Shown here: positions 9,703 through 63,075 of the stretch, in pieces
Numbering within the stretch: position 1 is the first letter of the stretch
Layout: each line of letters opens with the position of its first letter
Assembly: GCA_021513695.1 (NCBI GenBank)
Contig: CP084166.1
Coordinates: forward strand, 2,400,001 to 2,464,000
Direction: 5' to 3'
DNA length: 64,000 nucleotides
Source of the DNA: Candidatus Heimdallarchaeum aukensis
Lineage (GTDB): Archaea > Asgardarchaeota > Heimdallarchaeia > Heimdallarchaeales > Heimdallarchaeaceae
Made by a program: the position numbers and the translations under genes
The notes under the pieces: model-generated
What the model saw: only the letters and a program-made list of their open reading frames with translations
Databases searched by the model: none
What the model was told of the DNA's origin: nothing

Positions 9703-10089
9703 ATGGAGCCTGGTGAACACATGATGGATTGGTGGGGTATTCCTTTTATGGGTTATATGATGATTGGAGCAGCACTCGTGCTTGTATTAATTGCATTTCT
9801 GATATATTTAGATGCAGAAAAACGTGGAATGAATGGTTTATTATGGTTTTTCTTGGTTATTGTACCAATGATAAGCGTGGTATCTATTATAGTCTACCTC
9901 ATAATAAGAGTTGATTATCCTGTACAGCAACCAGTTAAAGAAAGCTTATTACACAAACCACAAGTTTATCAAGAAAGCCCAACATCAAAGATTACTGCTT
10001 TAGCAAAGCTTGATGAACGCTATGCTAATGGCGAAATAACTCGTGAAGAATACTATCAGATGAAAAGAGATATTGAGTTATCCCCATAA
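9703..10089 (+). CDS. membrane protein with C-terminal SHOCT-like domain
   Basis: Two TM helices, then LAKLDERYANGEITREEYYQMKRDIE, which is typical of the SHOCT short C-terminal domain. GGAGGA at 9691-9696 precedes ATG 9703; the track start 9688 is TTG. Confidence 0.55.
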   Translation: MEPGEHMMDWWGIPFMGYMMIGAALVLVLIAFLIYLDAEKRGMNGLLWFFLVIVPMISVVSIIVYLIIRVDYPVQQPVKESLLHKPQVYQESPTSKITALAKLDERYANGEITREEYYQMKRDIELSP

Positions 10090-53434: not shown

Positions 53435-54727
53435 GTGATAAAAATAAAATTCAACGAATTACCATTGACACATGAAACCATGCTAGCGATAGAAAAAATT
53501 GGTTTCACAACATTAACAGATATTCAAGAACAAGCTATTCCTCAGATACTTGAAAGAAATGACACTCATGTTTTAGCTCAAGCAAAAACAGGAACAGGAA
53601 AAACACTTTCTTTTGCAATTCCTTTGGTAGAAAAACTTGATCCAAAGAAGAAAATTGTTCAAGCAGTAATTATTGTTCCAACAAGAGAGCTGTGTAAACA
53701 AGTTCATTCAGTTATTAAAGAAGTATCAAGATATAGACGCTTTAAAACAGTAGAAGTCTATGGAGGAGTATCTATAAACAGACAAATAGAAAAAATAGAA
53801 TCAGGGGCACAGATTGTTATAGCTACCCCGGGGAGACTAATTGATCTTTACTATAGAGAGGTAATAAATCTAGATAAAGTAAGATTTGCCGTTTTAGATG
53901 AAGCAGATAAAATGTTAGATATGGGATTTTTCCCAGATATAGAGTTTATCTTGTTTGAAGCAATGAAAAATGCTAGACCACATTTAATGCTATTTTCAGC
54001 AACAATTATAGACACAATAAGAGAAATCGCTTTTGATTTCACTATTGGTCAAAAGTTATTGGAAATTGACGTATCTCATGACTCATTAACAGTTGAAAGT
54101 TGTGAACAATATTATTATAAAGTAAATGACCAAAGATACAAATATTCTACATTCAAACAGATTCTAAAAAAAGAGAACCCTAAATTTAGTATTATTTTTG
54201 TAAATACCAAAAAAATGGCAAACATTTTAGCAAAAAGATTACGACATGAAAAGGATTTATCTCTAAGAGTAGACATGCTACACGGTGATATGACACAAAG
54301 ACAAAGGGAGATAGTTACTAATCGTTTTAGAAAAAAACAATTAAATTGCTTGATTGCAACAAATGTAGCAGCAAGGGGATTAGATTTTCCACATATTACT
54401 CATATTTTCAATTATGATATACCTGACACAGTAGAAAACTATGTTCATAGGGTAGGTAGAACATCAAGAATGGGTTCATCTGGGACAGCTATTTCTTTAG
54501 TAGTTGATGATGGTAAACAATTAAGCCAGTTATATGCGATAGAACAATTTATTGATCTAGAAATAAAGAGACAACACATAAAATTCTCAAAAAGTGAACA
54601 TTCGGCTTCTAGTAATAGAGAAAAAAAACATAATGAAAATTCTAGTAATAGGTATAAAAATAAAAGTTCTAAAAAATCCAAATCTCCCTATTACAAAAAG
54701 GTCTATTCACAGATTGAAAGAAACTAG
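53435..54727 (+). CDS. DEAD-box ATP-dependent RNA helicase
   Basis: Q motif (F..LTDIQEQAIP), I AQAKTGTGKT, Ia PTREL, II DEAD, III SAT, VI HRVGRTSRMG. Basic K/N/S-rich C-terminal tail. GTG start. Confidence 0.93.
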   Translation: MIKIKFNELPLTHETMLAIEKIGFTTLTDIQEQAIPQILERNDTHVLAQAKTGTGKTLSFAIPLVEKLDPKKKIVQAVIIVPTRELCKQVHSVIKEVSRYRRFKTVEVYGGVSINRQIEKIESGAQIVIATPGRLIDLYYREVINLDKVRFAVLDEADKMLDMGFFPDIEFILFEAMKNARPHLMLFSATIIDTIREIAFDFTIGQKLLEIDVSHDSLTVESCEQYYYKVNDQRYKYSTFKQILKKENPKFSIIFVNTKKMANILAKRLRHEKDLSLRVDMLHGDMTQRQREIVTNRFRKKQLNCLIATNVAARGLDFPHITHIFNYDIPDTVENYVHRVGRTSRMGSSGTAISLVVDDGKQLSQLYAIEQFIDLEIKRQHIKFSKSEHSASSNREKKHNENSSNRYKNKSSKKSKSPYYKKVYSQIERN

Positions 54728-56134: not shown

Positions 56135-56180
56135 AATTTTTTTGAATCTATTCAAAATCTATTCAAAATCTATTCAAAAT
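56135..56180. repeat. tandem direct repeat: four perfect copies of an 11-bp unit AATCTATTCAA
   Basis: Read directly: gAATCTATTCAAAATCTATTCAAAATCTATTCAAAATCTATTCAAaa. A degenerate fifth copy (AATCTATT) sits at 56869-56876, 20 bp upstream of the 56897 operon start. Confidence 0.9.
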
Positions 56181-56280
56181 CTATTCAAAATAAGCTTAAA
56201 AAATAAAAAAAATGATTGTTAGTTCCTTAAAACAATGTTTTAAGTTATTCTTATTCTATAATAAAAAAGATGATTTGTTA

Positions 56281-56415
56281 TTAATAACGATTATATCTTC
56301 TATTATTTTGTCTATGTTTTCTATAACAATCTTGACAATAGACGGGTCTTTCACCATCTGGTTTGAAAGGTACCTGTGCATTTTTTCCACAGTCATCACA
56401 AACGATGTCAAACAT
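56281..56415 (-). CDS. small (44 aa) Cys4 zinc-ribbon protein, not in the 60-aa ORF track
   Basis: Minus-strand translation MFDIVCDDCGKNAQVPFKPDGERPVYCQDCYRKHRQNNRRYNRY: CxxC-x19-CxxC with basic tail. Lies antisense to the listed low-complexity + strand ORF 56212..56493. Confidence 0.4.
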   Translation of the reverse strand: MFDIVCDDCGKNAQVPFKPDGERPVYCQDCYRKHRQNNRRYNRY

Positions 56416-56896
56416 TTCACGATTGTCTATGTAATTTTCTCTACTCAATATATTTCACCGATTATTGATTGGTTATACTTGAAAGTTCATTAGGATCCAA
56501 AAAATAGTTGAGACTAATTTAATGATTCTAAAAGTGAACTACAAATATACTAAGTTAATGAAATATATGTAGTATTTAAATTCTAGGTTTGAACTCAAGA
56601 ATTATTTATTTGATTTAAACTCAAAGTAAAAAGTCCTTCTAAACTTTCAAAGTTACTCTTATTGTTATTCTTAATGCTTTATTTTTCTTTTTTATCTGTT
56701 TTCTAGTCATATAATTTTTTTATCAAGACACATTTGTATTTGAAAAAAGAGAACTTTTTTTACATTAGTAGGAGAACTAACATTTTATTGATAAATTCTT
56801 GGATTATATATTAGCAAAAAATAATTATAAAAAAAACAGATTTTTCTACAATTTTCTTTAAATTTCAAAATCTATTTAAGTGAAAATGCATTCTTT

Positions 56897-57166
56897 TTGT
56901 TAGTACAATTGGTGAGTAAAGTGGATAGTTCTGATTCTTCTATTATAGTTGAAAAAATTAAAAAAGAAATAAATAGTTATGAATCTTCGAGGGCGAAAGG
57001 AAAAAAACTTATTTTTGAGAAATCTACTCCTGAACTTCTAAATAGTTTAGTACAGTTTCTAAATGATTTTTTTGATAAGTATTCTAAAACAGAAAAAGTA
57101 GAAGAAATTAACGAATTTGTCGATCATCTATATTCTACATTAAGGTGGAAGAAAAATGATTACTAG
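56897..57166 (+). CDS. small hypothetical protein, first gene of three-gene operon
   Basis: 89-aa ORF (TTG/GTG start region). 11-bp overlap with the following ATPase gene. Confidence 0.4.
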   Translation: MLVQLVSKVDSSDSSIIVEKIKKEINSYESSRAKGKKLIFEKSTPELLNSLVQFLNDFFDKYSKTEKVEEINEFVDHLYSTLRWKKNDY

Positions 57167-58982
57167 TGTAAGCGTGAAAAATTGGAAAAAGTTTGATCAA
57201 CAAAAAGAATGGACTTTTGATAAAGGAATCCAACTTATTTATGGTCCTAACACAAGCGGTAAATCTTCTCTCCTCGAAGCTATCTATTTTGCTTTTTTTG
57301 GAGTAAATGAGAAGGTAGATGGAAACCCTACTTATAATTCGAATGAATCTGCAATTGTAACTGTTGATTTCATCTCTGATACTGGAGATAAGTATAGAAT
57401 AATCAGGAGTTATAAGAAAATTAAAAGAAAAGAAGAATCTTTTACACTTTACAAATTGGTTGATGGAAAAGAGGAGTTTTTCTCTGAAAACCCTCAAGAT
57501 GCAATTAAACTCTACGGAAAATTTGAAGATATTTTTACTCACATAATTTTTCTAAAAGAAGGAGAAATATACAGAACGCTATCGCGGATGAAAAGTAACT
57601 TAGATGAAGAACTATCCTATTTGTTGAACTTACAACGATTTGACGTTCTTCGTGAGAAATTGAGAGAAACAAGACTTAAGGTAATTAAGAAACAGAAAGA
57701 AAGTGTAAAGAAAGATCCAGCGTATTTGTCTGAAAAAGAGATAAACGAGTTTAAAGAGAAGTTGCATAGTCTAAATAATGAAAAAGAGAAGTTGGAAGGA
57801 AAGAAAAAGAAAGTAATCCACGATAAGAAACTTGCTGAGAAAAGATTTTCATTAAATAAAAAGTTGAAAGAGCTTGATTCTGAAAAACAAAAATATGGTG
57901 AAACAATAAAAAATATTAGAACCAAGTATGAAAATAAAGAATCTTTGATTGATTTTTTGAACAATGAAATTGCGGTATTAGAAAATAAAAATGAACAGTT
58001 AGATATAAAATGTTCTAAACTTAGCAGCGAAAAAGCTGAAAAAGAAGGAGAAAAAAGGAGACTAAATAAATTAATTAATGAAATTAACTCATTCAAATCT
58101 TCTGGAACTACCACATGTCCTACTTGTTATCAAAAAGTCGACCCTATGATTCTTCAAGAAGCTATTGAGGGTTTCAGCAAAAAAGTTAAAGATTTAGAAA
58201 ATGCATTGTTTCAACTTAATTCTTCCATAAATGAAATTAATGAAGAAAAGAGAATAATCTCTCAAAAGATAAGGGAAATTAAAGAAGACTTATTTGATCT
58301 TGAAAATGCTAAAAAAGGAATCAGTTTCATTCAACAGGAGATAAATGAGATAAACAATTATCTAAACTCACTTCCCCACACTGAAAATATTGAAAATTAT
58401 TCAATGCAGATAGAAGATCTAGAAGACGAAATAAGTAACATTAATGTGGAAATAAGAACAGTAGAGAAAAAGTTGAGTTCAAGTAAACAAGAAGGGATAA
58501 TGATTGACGAGTTAGAATTTCAAGAAAAGTTTATTGAATTAGTTGAAAATAAACTGAGTGAATATAAAGATGAGTTGCTTGAAAGAAAATTAAATGAAAT
58601 TAAAGGAGTAATAAAAGAAAAATGGGCAGAAATATGGGATAAAGAAATTTGGTCCATAGAATTTGATGACAATTTAGTTCCTACAATTAGCTTTAAGTAT
58701 AAAGGAACAACTATTCAACAAAATTTGCGCAGTTTTTCAGCGAGTGAAAAAATACTTTTAAGTGTCATTTTACGCGCTGCTTTAATTGATAAACTTTTAA
58801 GCGTAAAAACAATGATTCTAGATGACCCCTCAATCTTTTTAGACCAAGAAAGTGTTAAAATTGCTGCTCGATTCTATCGTGAACTTATAGATAATAAACA
58901 TGTGGATCAGATAATTATGACCACATTTGATGAATCTTTCAAAGAATTATTAAAACCTGAAAAAGTGATAAACCTTGAGTAA
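57156..58982 (+). CDS. Rad50/SbcC/SMC-like ABC ATPase with central zinc hook (short, 608 aa)
   Basis: N-terminal Walker A GPNTSGKSSLLEAI. About 480-aa K/E-rich coiled coil. CPTC zinc-hook motif at about residue 321 (nt about 58116-58127), at the coiled-coil midpoint. Degenerate signature SASEK. Walker B TMILDDP. D-loop and His (HVDQIIMTTFD). Confidence 0.8.
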   Translation: MITSVSVKNWKKFDQQKEWTFDKGIQLIYGPNTSGKSSLLEAIYFAFFGVNEKVDGNPTYNSNESAIVTVDFISDTGDKYRIIRSYKKIKRKEESFTLYKLVDGKEEFFSENPQDAIKLYGKFEDIFTHIIFLKEGEIYRTLSRMKSNLDEELSYLLNLQRFDVLREKLRETRLKVIKKQKESVKKDPAYLSEKEINEFKEKLHSLNNEKEKLEGKKKKVIHDKKLAEKRFSLNKKLKELDSEKQKYGETIKNIRTKYENKESLIDFLNNEIAVLENKNEQLDIKCSKLSSEKAEKEGEKRRLNKLINEINSFKSSGTTTCPTCYQKVDPMILQEAIEGFSKKVKDLENALFQLNSSINEINEEKRIISQKIREIKEDLFDLENAKKGISFIQQEINEINNYLNSLPHTENIENYSMQIEDLEDEISNINVEIRTVEKKLSSSKQEGIMIDELEFQEKFIELVENKLSEYKDELLERKLNEIKGVIKEKWAEIWDKEIWSIEFDDNLVPTISFKYKGTTIQQNLRSFSASEKILLSVILRAALIDKLLSVKTMILDDPSIFLDQESVKIAARFYRELIDNKHVDQIIMTTFDESFKELLKPEKVINLE

Positions 58983-60579
58983 AACTAAATTTTTATTCGT
59001 TTTTGACACTTCTTTTTTTTGGTCTCTTTTAAATGTTAATCGGCATCAATTGATCCAAGATATTAAAGAAGTATTTGACTATGTTCCAAATATTCAATAT
59101 ATTGCTCCCAAAGTGATTTTAAAGGAACTATCTGGAAAATATAAAGATAAATGTCCTTTTCTAGAGCGGCATATTCAATTTACAGACATTGAAATTACAG
59201 AGGAGGAATTAAAAGAACTTAAAAAATTGAATAGTTCCTTGCCTAATCATGCATTTGAGAGAAAGGAAAAAGGTGATTACATAATAATTAACACTGCAAA
59301 AAAGTATGATGATTCAGAAGCAGTCAAATTTGTTGTAAGTAATGACGAGGGAATTCATCTGTTTCTTGATCAAGCTATCCCAGAAGAGAAAATAAAACCA
59401 ATCTGGGTAGCTAGATTTTTATCCTTTTTAGCCAAACAATCCTTAACTAAAAACCAAAAACGAAGGTTTACTCAAGCATCTGAAATGCTAGAAGAATATA
59501 TTGATACTTATCGTATAAAATCAAAGAGAGGAGAAACACCCTTTTACGATATAGAAAAAATACTAATGTCAGCTAAATTTTTACCTGCTGAAGAACAAAT
59601 TAATAGATTGCAAGAAGCTCTAGAAAATCAGATAATTACAGGAGAAAAAAGTGATACACTTCCTTCTTTTATTAATCAAATAGGCTCAAAACTGCATCAA
59701 ATCTTTTCCTATATAGATTTAGGTGAAACAAATGTTATTGAATCTCAACTCGAATCTGTAGAAGTAATAATTATGAATTTAAGTTTAGAGCAACGAGAGA
59801 CAGTTTACAAAATTATCAGTTTTTACCTGATTACAATTTTAAATCGGTTAGCTTCAATTTATGACCAAAATGGAGCTTTTTCTGGAATTGTTTCTGCATT
59901 AGAAAGAGCAAAGTTTTACTTAAAATATGTTGATGAATATGAAGACAAAAGTCAACTTTATGCAATTTTAAGTTGGATACACCTATTAAATAATTCAAAC
60001 GATTTATCACGGTATTATTTTTCAAAGGTAACAGATAAAAACTTTGAACTAGCAAAGAAACTAACAGCGTTGTTGGAACTGTATGATACTCCATTGGCAA
60101 AGATCGATACAAGATTGTATGAACTAGTTCCATCAGAAACTTGGAAAAACCTTAACGAAACACTAGCTATCTGTCCCAATAGACTACTACGAGAGAAAAT
60201 AGCCTATATTGTGAATACCTTTGAAATAAAACCCTCATTTGTTTTTGATGCAAGGCATTTTAATTTAAAAAATATGGAAATAAAAGAAAACTCTTTGCTT
60301 TCATTTCTAAAAGAGCAGTTTAGAATATTGAATATAATAAAAAAAGAAAGTTCAGTAGTAATTGAGTGTCATGACAGTAAAATAGGTCAAATTGAACTTC
60401 GTTTGCCTATCATCAGGACTATACTTAAAGTGTCACCTGGTGATTTAATAAGCTTTAGAGGGGGAACAATAGCAAAAATAAAGAAACCAAGTCCTGGAAA
60501 AAAACATTCTGCAACAATATATTTCAGTAAATTAGAAGAAGATGATTGTATTATTTCAAAAGATAGTAAACTGATTTAG
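58975..60579 (+). CDS. hypothetical protein with PIN-like N-terminal domain and long alpha-helical C-terminal region; partner of the Rad50-like ATPase
   Basis: 8-bp overlap with the upstream gene. N-terminus FLFVFDTSFF... (PIN motif-I-like Asp). DYIIINTAKKYDD and FVVSNDEGI resemble the PIN distal acidic motifs. The remaining about 400 aa is helical. Confidence 0.45.
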   Translation: MSKTKFLFVFDTSFFWSLLNVNRHQLIQDIKEVFDYVPNIQYIAPKVILKELSGKYKDKCPFLERHIQFTDIEITEEELKELKKLNSSLPNHAFERKEKGDYIIINTAKKYDDSEAVKFVVSNDEGIHLFLDQAIPEEKIKPIWVARFLSFLAKQSLTKNQKRRFTQASEMLEEYIDTYRIKSKRGETPFYDIEKILMSAKFLPAEEQINRLQEALENQIITGEKSDTLPSFINQIGSKLHQIFSYIDLGETNVIESQLESVEVIIMNLSLEQRETVYKIISFYLITILNRLASIYDQNGAFSGIVSALERAKFYLKYVDEYEDKSQLYAILSWIHLLNNSNDLSRYYFSKVTDKNFELAKKLTALLELYDTPLAKIDTRLYELVPSETWKNLNETLAICPNRLLREKIAYIVNTFEIKPSFVFDARHFNLKNMEIKENSLLSFLKEQFRILNIIKKESSVVIECHDSKIGQIELRLPIIRTILKVSPGDLISFRGGTIAKIKKPSPGKKHSATIYFSKLEEDDCIISKDSKLI

Positions 60580-60732
60580 CATTGTTTCTATTCATTCACT
60601 ATCGAATTATTTTACTTTGGAAAGAATAAGATGTAATGCAATAAATTATGCAGACTTAAAAAATAACATGCGTGTTTGCAATCATTTAAAATATACTTAT
60701 ATACTCTCTTTAAAAGAACACATGATGCATAT

Positions 60733-63075
60733 ATGCGGATAAAAGTTAGGAATATATTATTAATCTTTTTAATAGTTGTTGGAAGTATATACGTTTCCAA
60801 CATAGCAAATTCTAATATTGAAGGAACAAATATTATAATAACGGAAGTATTATATGATGCTCCTAATTCTGATTCGACTGAAGAGTGGATAGAATTATAC
60901 AACCCTACAGATCAAATTATTTCTATAGACAATTGGATAATTGAAGACAATTATGACTCTTTTACTCTTACAGGAACTTTAGATGCCTATGGATATTTTG
61001 TTATTGCTAAACAATCCTCTGCGTTCAATAGTTTATACGGCTTTAACCCTGATTTGGATGGGATGACGTTAGCTTTGAGTAACTCTGGAGATCAAGTAAG
61101 ACTCAGTGATAATACAGGAGCTGAAGTAGATTTTGTGGCTTGGGAAAATTATGTAAGCGGATGGTCTGTTTCTGCAGTAGATGCTACAATCAGAAGAATA
61201 ACAGCAACAGATACTGATTCTGGTTCTGATTGGGAAAATAGTGGCAGTTTGGGTGATCCTGGAACAGGAAGTTATAGTTCGGGGGGAGAAGATACCACCC
61301 CTCCTACAGTCACTATTACAAGTCCAATAGATGGAGCTACAGTCTATGGGACTGTTCAAATAACTGTTGATGCCACGGATGCAAATGGTATCTCAAGTTA
61401 TGAGATCTACATCGATAATGTTCTAAGAGCTACTTCGTCTTCTTATTCTTGGGATACAACGGTAGAAGAAGATGGAAGCCACACGATCGTTGCTAAAGCC
61501 CAAGACCCATCTGGAAATTGGGGTGAAGATACTATTACCGTTAACGTCGACAACACGAACCCTCCTCCTTCTCCTCCAAGTGATTATGCTAAAATAATGA
61601 CATATAATATAGAACAGAGTGGACTTGATCCAGATTGGAAACAAGTAGTAAAAGAAGAAAATCCCGATATTGTTATTTTCGTAGAAACAGGAACTTGGGA
61701 TGATAACAATAACGAGCTTCTAAATCAGTATGTTAATGAGTTTAATAGTTATTTTGTCGATGAAGCACCCTATGTAGGATATACAGCTCAGGATATAACT
61801 TATTCTACAAGTGGAGAAGCAATAATGAGCAGATATCCCATAATAGAGAATACTCAGATACCAATTGTATCATTAGATGATGGTTCCAGTTATGATGTTA
61901 CCCATGATTTTATGTCGTGGAAGGTAAATATCAGTGGAACACCAGTATATATTATTGGTGCTCATCTTAAGGCAAGCTCAGGCTCTGATAATGAATGGAG
62001 AAGAGAACGTGAACAAGAAGGAATCATTAATTATATGGATAGTTTGGGAGAAGTACCTATAATCTACATGGGTGATCTTAACTCTTTTTCTCCAGAAGAT
62101 ACAGGAGACTTAGCACCTTTAGGAGATTTAGGTTATGGTCCAATGACAATGACTATTTGGCCTGATGATCCAACTTATGGACAATATTCTTCGCAAAATC
62201 ATCTTTTCACTGATGTTTTCAGAACCCTCAATCCTACAGAACCAGGATACACCTATGGACACCAAGATCCTCAATACAAATCAAGAATCGATTATATAGT
62301 AGTGAATGATCACTTGGATGACTTCTTAATCAATTCAACCGTGGGAGATACACCTACAGCTGATACTGGTTCTGATCATTACTGTGTGGATATGTTCATT
62401 GATGTTGCAGCTCTTAATAATGGTGCTCCACCTGATACAACTCCACCTGCAAAGGTTACAGATCTAACTGCTACGCCCATTAGTTCCTCTCAAATTGATT
62501 TATCTTGGACCGCAAACACTGAAGGAGATCTAAGCTACTATAAAATTTATAGAGATGGAGTATTTATTGCTCAAACAACTACAACAGATTACAGTGATAC
62601 AGGATTAGAACCTTCTACAACTTATACATATGAGGTTTCTGCAGTAGATACAAGCAATAACGAAGGAGTGAAATCTGACCCTGTTTCTGCTACAACGGAT
62701 TCAGTAACAACAGAAACAATACATGTAGATAGTATTGTAACAGGACTGTATGTTGGTAGAAAAGATCCTGTTTTTACTGAAACAAATTCCTTCCAGCCTA
62801 AAGATATAGTGATAATACGTGTAAAAATAGTTGATTCCAATGGTATAGCTGTTGAAGGAGTCTCTGTAACTATAACAATTACTGACTCTGAAGGAGATGT
62901 AGTAACACTAACATCAACAACTGACAGCCAAGGTATCGCAGAGTTTTCCTACAGATTAAGTCCAAGAGCTCCTCTAGGTACATATACAATAAATGTAACT
63001 GATGTAAGCTTAAGTGGATATACTTATGATCCTACAGCAAATGTAGTTTCAAGTGTTGATTTTACAGTTAGTTAA
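60733..63075 (+). CDS. secreted/surface protein: lamin-tail domain (LTD) + Ig-like + endonuclease/exonuclease/phosphatase (EEP) + fibronectin-III + C-terminal beta domain; ExeM/NucH-like extracellular nuclease
   Basis: N-terminal signal/anchor MRIKVRNILLIFLIVVGSIYVSN. LTD pattern IIITEVLYDAPNSDSTEEWIELYNPTD...ALSNSGDQVRLSD..VDFVAW. EEP pattern IMTYNIEQSG...PDIVIFVE...GSDHYCVDM. FN3 ...LSWTAN...YKIYRDG...TTYTYEVSAVD. AT-rich TATA-like TTTAAAAT about 28 bp upstream. Confidence 0.75.
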   Translation: MRIKVRNILLIFLIVVGSIYVSNIANSNIEGTNIIITEVLYDAPNSDSTEEWIELYNPTDQIISIDNWIIEDNYDSFTLTGTLDAYGYFVIAKQSSAFNSLYGFNPDLDGMTLALSNSGDQVRLSDNTGAEVDFVAWENYVSGWSVSAVDATIRRITATDTDSGSDWENSGSLGDPGTGSYSSGGEDTTPPTVTITSPIDGATVYGTVQITVDATDANGISSYEIYIDNVLRATSSSYSWDTTVEEDGSHTIVAKAQDPSGNWGEDTITVNVDNTNPPPSPPSDYAKIMTYNIEQSGLDPDWKQVVKEENPDIVIFVETGTWDDNNNELLNQYVNEFNSYFVDEAPYVGYTAQDITYSTSGEAIMSRYPIIENTQIPIVSLDDGSSYDVTHDFMSWKVNISGTPVYIIGAHLKASSGSDNEWRREREQEGIINYMDSLGEVPIIYMGDLNSFSPEDTGDLAPLGDLGYGPMTMTIWPDDPTYGQYSSQNHLFTDVFRTLNPTEPGYTYGHQDPQYKSRIDYIVVNDHLDDFLINSTVGDTPTADTGSDHYCVDMFIDVAALNNGAPPDTTPPAKVTDLTATPISSSQIDLSWTANTEGDLSYYKIYRDGVFIAQTTTTDYSDTGLEPSTTYTYEVSAVDTSNNEGVKSDPVSATTDSVTTETIHVDSIVTGLYVGRKDPVFTETNSFQPKDIVIIRVKIVDSNGIAVEGVSVTITITDSEGDVVTLTSTTDSQGIAEFSYRLSPRAPLGTYTINVTDVSLSGYTYDPTANVVSSVDFTVS

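Follow-up and report, generated by a model that had tools for sequence, protein, structure and literature searches.

A 64,000-nucleotide (nt) stretch of the Candidatus Heimdallarchaeum aukensis chromosome (contig CP084166.1, positions 2,400,001 to 2,464,000; hereafter the window, with positions counted from its first letter) contains three consecutive plus-strand open reading frames (ORFs) at 56897-57166, 57156-58982, and 58975-60579. They encode a small protein, a short Rad50-like coiled-coil ABC ATPase, and a larger partner protein that combines PIN, TPR-like, and OB-fold parts (PIN-TPR-OB), and the trio is considered here as a candidate conflict or defence module that may work in the manner of the Lamassu systems. 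The preliminary description of this locus, made from the sequence alone, reported that the three ORFs overlap by 11 and 8 nt, which is borne out (AAAAATGATTACTAG at the first overlap and CTTGAGTAA at the second), as are the outer limits of the operon and its strand; the three-gene module is translationally coupled. Counterparts with 99-100% identity are annotated on an NCBI contig of a metagenome-assembled genome (MAG). Candidatus Heimdallarchaeum endolithica, which carries the trio at the same chromosomal position with 83% amino acid (aa) identity, served as the reference for the ratio of non-synonymous to synonymous substitution rates (dN/dS), which is 0.092 for the ATPase gene, 0.105 for the partner gene, and, on few sites, 0.25-0.40 for the small gene. 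With a ratio of about 0.1 for the two large genes, a mark of purifying selection, and recurrence of the trio at other loci, the three genes are real.

The 608-aa ATPase is presumed to act as a sensor or switch. It had been credited with every hallmark of the Rad50/SMC family, and the Walker A motif, CPTC zinc hook, SASEK signature, ILDDP Walker B motif, and FLD D-loop are indeed all present (Table 1), but the H-loop His is replaced by Phe and the Q-loop Gln by Glu, making the protein catalytically degenerate. Alignment to Rad50 places IKQGEI of Rad50 (5f3w) opposite LKEGEI of the ATPase, and IITHH opposite MTTFD. Residues D556, D557, L562, and D563 of the Walker B motif and D-loop are invariant across the family, and four catalytic motifs (Q-loop, signature, Walker B, and H-loop) are degenerate throughout it, for which reason the ATPase is better regarded as a switch than as a motor. 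From these motifs, binding of ATP can be expected, but only poor hydrolysis. The coiled coil, given earlier as about 480 aa, measures only ~330-340 aa and is composed of two arms of ~155-165 aa.

Pfam recognizes only a generic N-terminal SMC/AAA P-loop region in the ATPase, and a PDB search with a profile of seven family sequences ranks M. jannaschii Rad50 first (151 bits), followed by other Rad50s and then by SMC proteins. Further traits shared with archaeal Rad50 are the antiparallel coiled coil with its zinc hook and two head motifs of the FALFG and QGEI types (FAFFG and KEGEI in the ATPase). In contrast to the Rad50 of archaeal Rad50-Mre11 complexes, however, the protein is 608 aa rather than ~880-900 aa long and has substituted Q-loop, signature, Walker B, and H-loop residues, and its scores on the NCBIfam archaeal Rad50 models (53-91 bits) lie far below the equivalog cut-offs (700-1087). 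Neither Mre11 nor SbcD was found among the neighbours, nor a second Rad50 homologue within the window. On the basis of its scores, length, substituted motifs, and lack of an Mre11 neighbour, the ATPase was rejected as a canonical Rad50, in agreement with the preliminary description.

The top NCBIfam match is instead ASRP (NF045487), which covers the full length of the ATPase at 101 bits. ASRPs (archaea-specific SMC-related proteins: coalescin ClsN, Sph1/Sph2) are ~600-aa proteins with a zinc hook and an S-x-S-E signature, and they are present in Heimdallarchaeota (PMC9389158), features that would suit a chromosome-organisation factor of the ASRP type (coalescin ClsN, Sph) equipped with two lineage-specific accessory subunits. 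Such a factor is nevertheless very unlikely, as 101 bits falls far under the 300-bit cut-off. Head-only hidden Markov models (HMMs) of Rad50 and ASRP, built from the trimmed supplementary alignments of the ASRP paper (PMC9389158), score the ATPase family at 51-82 and 21-40 bits, respectively, compared with 264-303 and 41-75 bits for Rad50 members and 19-54 and 206-279 bits for ASRP members. Since the ASRP-head scores lie under those of true Rad50s, identification of the ATPase as an ASRP or coalescin was rejected, and the family appears to represent a separate Rad50-derived lineage. Moreover, the FAFFG and KEGEI head motifs are absent from ASRPs, ASRPs lack conserved gene neighbours (PMC9389158) whereas this family has a fixed operon, and a PIN nuclease partner would be unexpected for a compaction factor.

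The third gene encodes the presumed effector. An AlphaFold2 model based on an 18-sequence alignment (predicted local distance difference test 89.7, predicted template modelling score 0.75) reveals a genuine PIN fold at the N-terminus, and the canonical PIN acidic tetrad is present: of its four residues, D101 and D124 are unchanged in all 15 homologues compared, and D11 and E51 are conserved to at least 90%. The PIN-like N-terminus proposed earlier is thereby confirmed, with a correction to its motifs: FVFDTS (D11) and SNDEG (D124) stand, whereas the aspartates of KKYDD are not among the conserved PIN acids, which also include E51 and D101. The best structural matches of the domain are VapC-type RNases, not DNA nucleases of the FEN/Exo1 type. 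No sequence match of the partner was found in Pfam, NCBIfam, or PDB; PIN_4 is the most recurrent Pfam family among its homologues (3 of 18, best E 1.8e-5), and its sole PADLOC match is a weak one, to the candidate model PDC-M07B (E 4.4e-4). A word-indexed search of 5.8 billion proteins recovered three close relatives, to which the profile version added none. Distant relatives emerged only when 1.84 billion representative proteins were searched exhaustively with an HMM, which yielded 19 relatives in all.

Searched with Foldseek, the partner most resembles TTC5/STRAP, in which a TPR array is followed by an OB fold (E 3e-4), and its C-terminal barrel matches the OB folds of RPA32/14, Stn1, and HIN at a probability of ~1.0 but with E values of 0.03-0.2. 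The likeness to ribosome-bound TTC5, together with the Asgard host, would fit an RNA-surveillance or ribosome-associated factor comparable to eukaryotic PIN proteins of the SMG6, Nob1, or Dis3 type, in which the TTC5-like TPR-OB part would recognise a protein or RNA cue, the PIN domain would degrade RNA, and the ATPase would provide a scaffold. Such a factor is highly improbable, given that the fold likeness of such common domains as TPR, OB, and PIN says little about function, that a tight operon with a Rad50-like, DNA-type ATPase would be left unexplained, and that a core RNA pathway would not be expected to be so rare.

Table 1. Coordinates of the genes, domains, and motifs of the three-gene module and of the upstream 14-mer (window positions)
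Feature	Position	Strand	Remarks
14-mer CAAAATCTATTTAA	56866..56879	+	~42 nt before the probable GTG start of the small gene; TATA-like ATTTAA inside
Small accessory protein	56921..57166	+	81 aa from GTG 56921; 11-nt overlap with the ATPase start at the 3' end
Short Rad50-like coiled-coil ABC ATPase	57156..58982	+	608 aa; single zinc hook; degenerate catalytic site
Walker A / P-loop GPNTSGKSS (aa 30-38), intact	57243..57269	+	G, N, and GKSS invariant in the family
Q-loop FLKEGEIYR (aa 132-140)	57549..57575	+	canonical Gln replaced by Glu135, family-invariant
Zinc hook TCPTCYQxVxP (aa 320-330)	58113..58145	+	CPTC at aa 321-324; CP[TS]CxQ invariant, single copy
ABC signature FSASEK (aa 527-532), degenerate	58734..58751	+	S-x-[SA]-E in the family; SGGE in Rad50
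Walker B MILDDP (hhhhDD, catalytic Glu replaced by Asp), then D-loop FLDQ	58812..58847	+	
H-loop position IIMTTFDES (aa 586-594)	58911..58937	+	switch His replaced by Phe; Phe/Tyr family-wide
Partner, PIN-TPR-OB, presumed effector	58975..60579	+	534 aa; TTG start; 8-nt overlap with the ATPase stop
PIN-fold nuclease domain (aa 1-156)	58975..59442	+	putative catalytic D11 (FVFDTS), E51 (KELS), D101 (GDY), D124 (SNDEG)
TPR-like helical repeat domain (aa ~205-420)	59587..60234	+	probable protein-protein interaction scaffold
C-terminal OB-fold beta-barrel (aa ~430-530)	60262..60564	+	probable single-stranded nucleic acid binder

The PIN-like domain of the partner is mobile, being found also in stand-alone proteins of ~200-260 aa and as the C-terminal part of helical proteins that are unrelated (P0020 and P0023). 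Two such paralogues with the motif hhVSNDEGI, at positions 6843-8612 of L013 (H. endolithica, ~16 kb downstream of the trio; L numbers denote loci carrying relatives) and 6001-8190 of L010, carry the domain at the C-terminus, preceded by a helical region of another kind (P0020- and P0023-like). The L010 gene is accompanied by genes for a UvrD-PDDEXK helicase-nuclease, an AAA ATPase, an RQC-domain protein, a VWA protein, and a VapB-like antitoxin. No PIN-like paralogue of this kind was found within the window, and a second 531-aa gene in L004, considered as a possible paralogue, was rejected as unrelated.

The mechanical ORF of the small gene begins at TTG 56897 and comprises 89 aa; the true start is probably GTG 56921, because the upstream TTGs are unconserved in H. 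endolithica and the orthologues begin there. Its homologues in L003 and L016 are placed alike and show 32-49% identity; in L004, L005, and L008, the start of the ATPase gene is overlapped by a small ORF of weak similarity, and in L015 such an ORF lies directly against it. None of the loci examined lacks a small ORF that overlaps or adjoins the beginning of the ATPase gene. In L015, the small protein, a tiny helical one, and the ATPase occur without the partner, and this small-protein/ATPase pair is therefore the conserved core. At none of seven orthologous positions does the small protein match a family in Pfam, PADLOC, or NCBIfam, and family searches detected no RHH, AbrB, or PHD-type antitoxin signature and no DndE signature in it.

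The order of small gene, ATPase gene (~610 aa), and partner gene (~520-560 aa) recurs in H. endolithica (L001, where the gene calls split or shorten both frameshifted genes described below), L003, L004, L005, and L008/L009, and it holds down to ~20% partner and 23% ATPase identity. The genes overlap at their start and stop codons in the window and likewise in L004, L005, and L008, and at most other loci a short gap separates the ATPase and partner genes. Altogether, the gene order recurs in six or more further metagenomic loci, with flanking genes that vary among them, and the locus is syntenic in H. endolithica. Partner relatives with a named organism come only from Asgard archaea, namely Heimdallarchaeota, Candidatus Freyarchaeum deiterrae, and Sigynarchaeota, and a scan of species-representative genomes with two short close-relative patterns, which are blind to distant members, returned Heimdallarchaeota only. 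Defence-type genes appear in 2 of ~9 contexts of family members: in Candidatus Freyarchaeum (L006), a solo partner-like gene adjoins DISARM genes (DrmA 773, DrmB 229, and DrmC 117 bits) and a HEPN-MNT pair, and in L008 the trio adjoins a DrmC-like PLD gene, a HEPN-MNT pair, and a TnsA-like gene. By this distribution, the module is rare, patchy, and accessory in character, which is counted in favour of a defence role.

In H. endolithica, the small gene and the partner gene each carry a 1-nt deletion at a homopolymer (poly-T) run, and the ATPase gene is intact. The deletions lie at about 9900-9946 and 11820-11876 of L001 (CP084167.1), corresponding to window positions 57068-57074 and 59020-59022, and both are identical in an independent Logan assembly (L002). 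The deletion in the partner gene cuts off the first 15 codons, including catalytic D11, and leads to a stop at codon 19. Recent pseudogenisation, phase variation, or a homopolymer error shared by the assemblies could each account for these deletions. With two of the three genes frameshifted, the module may be dispensable, which is likewise counted in favour of a defence role. As a separate observation, the synonymous divergence (dS) of the operon from H. endolithica is 0.88-1.02, about twice that of the neighbouring DEAD-box helicase gene (53435-54727; 0.53), and either allele replacement by recombination or different codon constraints could have raised it.

Several of these features could also be accommodated by a three-part toxin-antitoxin or addiction module, in which the PIN protein would be a VapC-like toxin, the small protein its antitoxin, and the ATPase a regulator, and which would persist selfishly, with or without host benefit through aborted infection. 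The PIN fold is closest to VapC toxins and shares the acidic tetrad of VapC RNases, the first gene of the operon encodes a small, labile-looking protein, the module is self-contained in variable contexts, HEPN-MNT toxin-antitoxin pairs neighbour two loci, and frameshift decay is seen in one lineage. We consider such a module quite unlikely, however, because the small protein, besides its lack of an antitoxin signature, is coupled to the ATPase rather than to the PIN protein and stays with the ATPase where the PIN protein is absent (L015), and because the PIN-TPR-OB protein stands alone in Freyarchaeum, without the small protein. Unlike VapBC systems, which feature no 608-aa coiled-coil ATPase, the trio carries its PIN domain at the N-terminus of a multidomain protein of 534 aa, with no adjacent VapB-type antitoxin.

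The closest parallel to the trio as a whole is provided by Lamassu (LmuACB, DdmABC, ABC-3C), which comprises a Rad50-like LmuB of ~600-800 aa, often with a CxxC hook, a small LmuC, and an effector LmuA (PMC12663957, PMC10586767, 10.1101/2025.03.14.643221). The effectors are modular and some variants have none (PMC12663957, PMC10586767, 10.1101/2025.03.14.643221); LmuA begins with an enzymatic domain, to which non-catalytic domains are joined on the C-terminal side (10.1101/2025.03.14.643221). The Walker B motif is divergent, a sign of slow ATP turnover, and reads hhhhDD in long LmuB and hhhhD[Q/S/T/E] in short LmuB (PMC12663957); slow LmuB ATPase activity has been documented (PMC12663957, PMC10586767, 10.1101/2025.03.14.643221). 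In the published mechanism, an LmuB dimer and LmuC sequester the C-terminal domain of LmuA near the zinc hook, and sensing of DNA ends, accompanied by slow ATP turnover, frees LmuA to oligomerise into an active nuclease (10.1101/2025.03.14.643221, PMC12663957). The Heimdallarchaeal trio likewise has three components: a small protein, a 608-aa Rad50-like ATPase with a ~335-aa coiled coil and a single CPTC hook, and an effector whose N-terminal enzymatic (PIN) domain precedes the non-catalytic TPR and OB parts, as in LmuA. As in long LmuB, the Walker B motif is hhhhDD, and both Asp residues are family-invariant. The resemblance to Lamassu noted in the preliminary description therefore holds for composition, ATPase size, hook, and Walker B motif, and by the same token its statement that the trio matches no named system was too strong, since these features match those of LmuB systems (PMC12663957); gene order and partners do differ.

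Most likely, the trio serves in conflict or defence in the manner of Lamassu, with an effector and a gene order that are new and, possibly, an origin of its own from archaeal Rad50. To the specific proposal that it is an Asgard-restricted three-component module working like Lamassu, in which a Rad50-derived sensor would control a nuclease effector, we assign a probability of about 0.5. The defence function is inferred from this analogy, from the rare and patchy distribution, and from the contexts of two of the ~9 relatives. The trio is probably better termed a variant of the Lamassu kind than something categorically new, its membership of Lamassu not being established; the concept of a Rad50-like sensor with an effector is already on record, and the noteworthy point is that, in Asgard archaea, a zinc-hook ATPase with degenerate motifs is paired with a PIN-TPR-OB protein. 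A bolder version, that Asgard archaea independently turned an archaeal-type Rad50 into an immune sensor whose dead-switch zinc-hook ATPase and 80-aa clamp license a PIN-TPR-OB RNase, is conceivable but doubtful.

A working model can be outlined by analogy with Lamassu. The ATPase would dimerise through its zinc hook and ATP-engaged heads and, binding ATP but hydrolysing it slowly or never, would serve as a conformational switch that senses aberrant nucleic-acid structures, such as DNA ends or replication intermediates of viruses or plasmids. The small protein may clamp or stabilise the resting complex in the manner of LmuC, and the TPR array of the partner may dock on the ATPase and the small protein, with the PIN domain kept inactive. 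Upon sensing, the partner would be released or re-arranged, its OB fold would engage single-stranded nucleic acid, and the freed VapC-like PIN domain could cleave RNA (tRNA or rRNA) or single-stranded DNA (ssDNA), thereby arresting the infected cell or destroying the invader.

A series of observations weighs against a Lamassu-like function. The order of small protein, ATPase, and effector at every locus examined departs from the LmuA-LmuC-LmuB order. The partner has no PADLOC LmuA model match at the four loci searched, and the ~80-aa small protein matches no PADLOC LmuC model, without detectable homology to LmuC (types MC1-MC8). The 60 best matches of the PDB profile search with the ATPase family include neither LmuB nor DdmC chains, the presence of LmuB in that PDB set being unchecked. 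PADLOC, proposed earlier as a check, does report a full-length LmuB match for the ATPase (PDLC03859, 111 bits), and the same match for all family members, and recognises no family for the small protein. This LmuB match does not discriminate: three genuine archaeal Rad50/SbcC proteins used as controls score higher (114-150 bits), and its use as proof of Lamassu was rejected, since the match means 'Rad50-like' rather than 'Lamassu'. Furthermore, the window neighbourhood holds ordinary genes (OMP-decarboxylase-like, Band 7, DEAD helicase, MBL hydrolase, zinc ribbon, and secreted LTD-EEP-MG2 proteins) instead of a defence island, and no recognisable defence genes surround the trio or pair in L003, L004, L005, and L015. 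The trio shares its chromosomal position with that of H. endolithica, where the upstream flank and a downstream MG2 remnant are syntenic, and consequently it does not lie in a variable island at the scale of sister species. The protein-protein contacts within the trio are inferred entirely from the Lamassu analogy, and a set made up of an OB fold, a nuclease, and a Rad50-like ATPase is also compatible with a repair machine.

Such a repair machine would be an accessory complex for DNA-end processing or repair, in which a Rad50 paralogue that has lost Mre11 works with a PIN-OB nuclease in host genome maintenance, the OB fold holding ssDNA while the PIN domain trims flaps or ends. Consistent with this are an ATPase head closest to archaeal Rad50, a partner OB fold resembling those of RPA32 and Stn1, the synteny with the sister species, strong purifying selection, the lack of defence neighbours in the window, and a PIN-domain relative (P0023) that adjoins the UvrD-PDDEXK (AddA-like) helicase-nuclease and RQC-domain protein genes. 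On the other hand, every catalytic position on which end processing by Rad50 depends is degenerate in the ATPase, the PIN domain resembles VapC-type RNases more than FEN/Exo1-type nucleases, the module is extremely rare and patchy and is frameshifted in H. endolithica, and some relatives reside in DISARM or HEPN-MNT contexts; on balance, a repair complex is unlikely. If it were nonetheless correct, the locus would encode an undescribed Rad50 paralogue with a PIN nuclease in place of Mre11.

If the trio is instead a Lamassu-like module, the principle of a Rad50-derived sensor joined to a modular effector would extend to Asgard archaea, PIN-TPR-OB would join the effector types, and a permuted operon and an ATPase that lacks all four hydrolysis residues would prove to be tolerated. 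Nine Lamassu effector domains have been counted, those named being Cap4, Mrr, a protease with a hydrolase-like protein, Sir2, FMO, HNH, SMEK, and lipase (PMC12663957), and PIN is not one of the nine. In the same survey, Lamassu was present in just seven archaeal genomes, with no Asgard archaeon among them (PMC12663957). Lamassu is derived from bacterial SbcCD (PMC12663957); unlike it, the ATPase head is nearest to archaeal Rad50 and gives 36.5 bits on the NCBIfam bacterial SbcC model, and under the Lamassu-like interpretation the principle may thus have arisen twice, from bacterial SbcCD and from archaeal Rad50. Whatever the function, defence-finder models cannot separate such ATPases from housekeeping Rad50, which matters for annotation; PDLC03859 alone cannot tell Lamassu ATPases from housekeeping Rad50, with genuine Rad50/SbcC proteins outscoring the short Rad50-like family.

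A further comparison is offered by DndD/CxC ABC ATPase-DndE (Pbe) systems, in which a core is combined with variable nucleases, including HEPN and PIN endoRNases (PMC10853773). As in these, a zinc-hook coiled-coil ABC ATPase is paired with a small protein in the Heimdallarchaeal operon; however, its hook is CPTC (CxxC) rather than CxC, and those systems are bacterial and linked to phosphorothioation. The PADLOC PbeC and DndD models give 56 and 37 bits on the ATPase, well below Rad50-type scores, and with no sign in the small protein of the RHH-repeat DndE that is obligatory there, assignment of the trio to these systems was rejected. Literature searches found no description of an archaeal system combining a Rad50-like protein with a PIN domain. 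Control of an RNase by a Rad50-like zinc-hook ATPase reportedly has a precedent in RloC. The latter is a single bacterial polypeptide, and its nuclease is other than a PIN domain.

The sequence setting of the operon agrees in part with what had been reported. The most AT-rich part of the window is the 56-57 kb bin (GC content 0.229), as claimed, but the operon itself has a GC content of 0.291 compared with 0.315 for the whole window. Of the flanking tandem repeats, one array stands: a perfect 11-nt array (AATCTATTCAA, 4.3 copies) at 56145-56191, upstream of the operon and separated from it by another gene, is the sole convincing one, and no tandem repeat occurs on the 3' side. The 14-mer CAAAATCTATTYAA occurs four times in the window against 0.54 expected, with three of the occurrences inside this array; the proximal copy (56866-56879) is invariant in H. 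endolithica, where the tandem array is absent. This proximal copy may be a promoter or operator element or a coincidence, and its link to the trio is tentative. A scan for promoters and terminators of the bacterial type gave no useful signal (26 sites against 21.8 expected and zero terminators).

Upstream of the operon, the minus strand at 56281-56448 encodes a 55-aa treble-clef zinc-finger protein (PF23477, E 1e-20), which is conserved in position in H. endolithica. Since the other trio loci lack it, it probably has nothing to do with the module. Downstream, the plus strand at 60676-63075 encodes a 799-aa protein with an N-terminal hydrophobic segment followed by Lamin-tail, Big_7, Exo_endo_phos, fn3, and MG2 domains. 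The gene was earlier called a secreted nuclease gene; for a protein with an Exo_endo_phos domain, however, nuclease is just one of the possible activities. In H. endolithica, a mere 116-aa MG2 remnant replaces the 799-aa gene, indicating that the region immediately downstream of the operon is variable, and a TnpB/Cas12f-like gene lies a few genes further.

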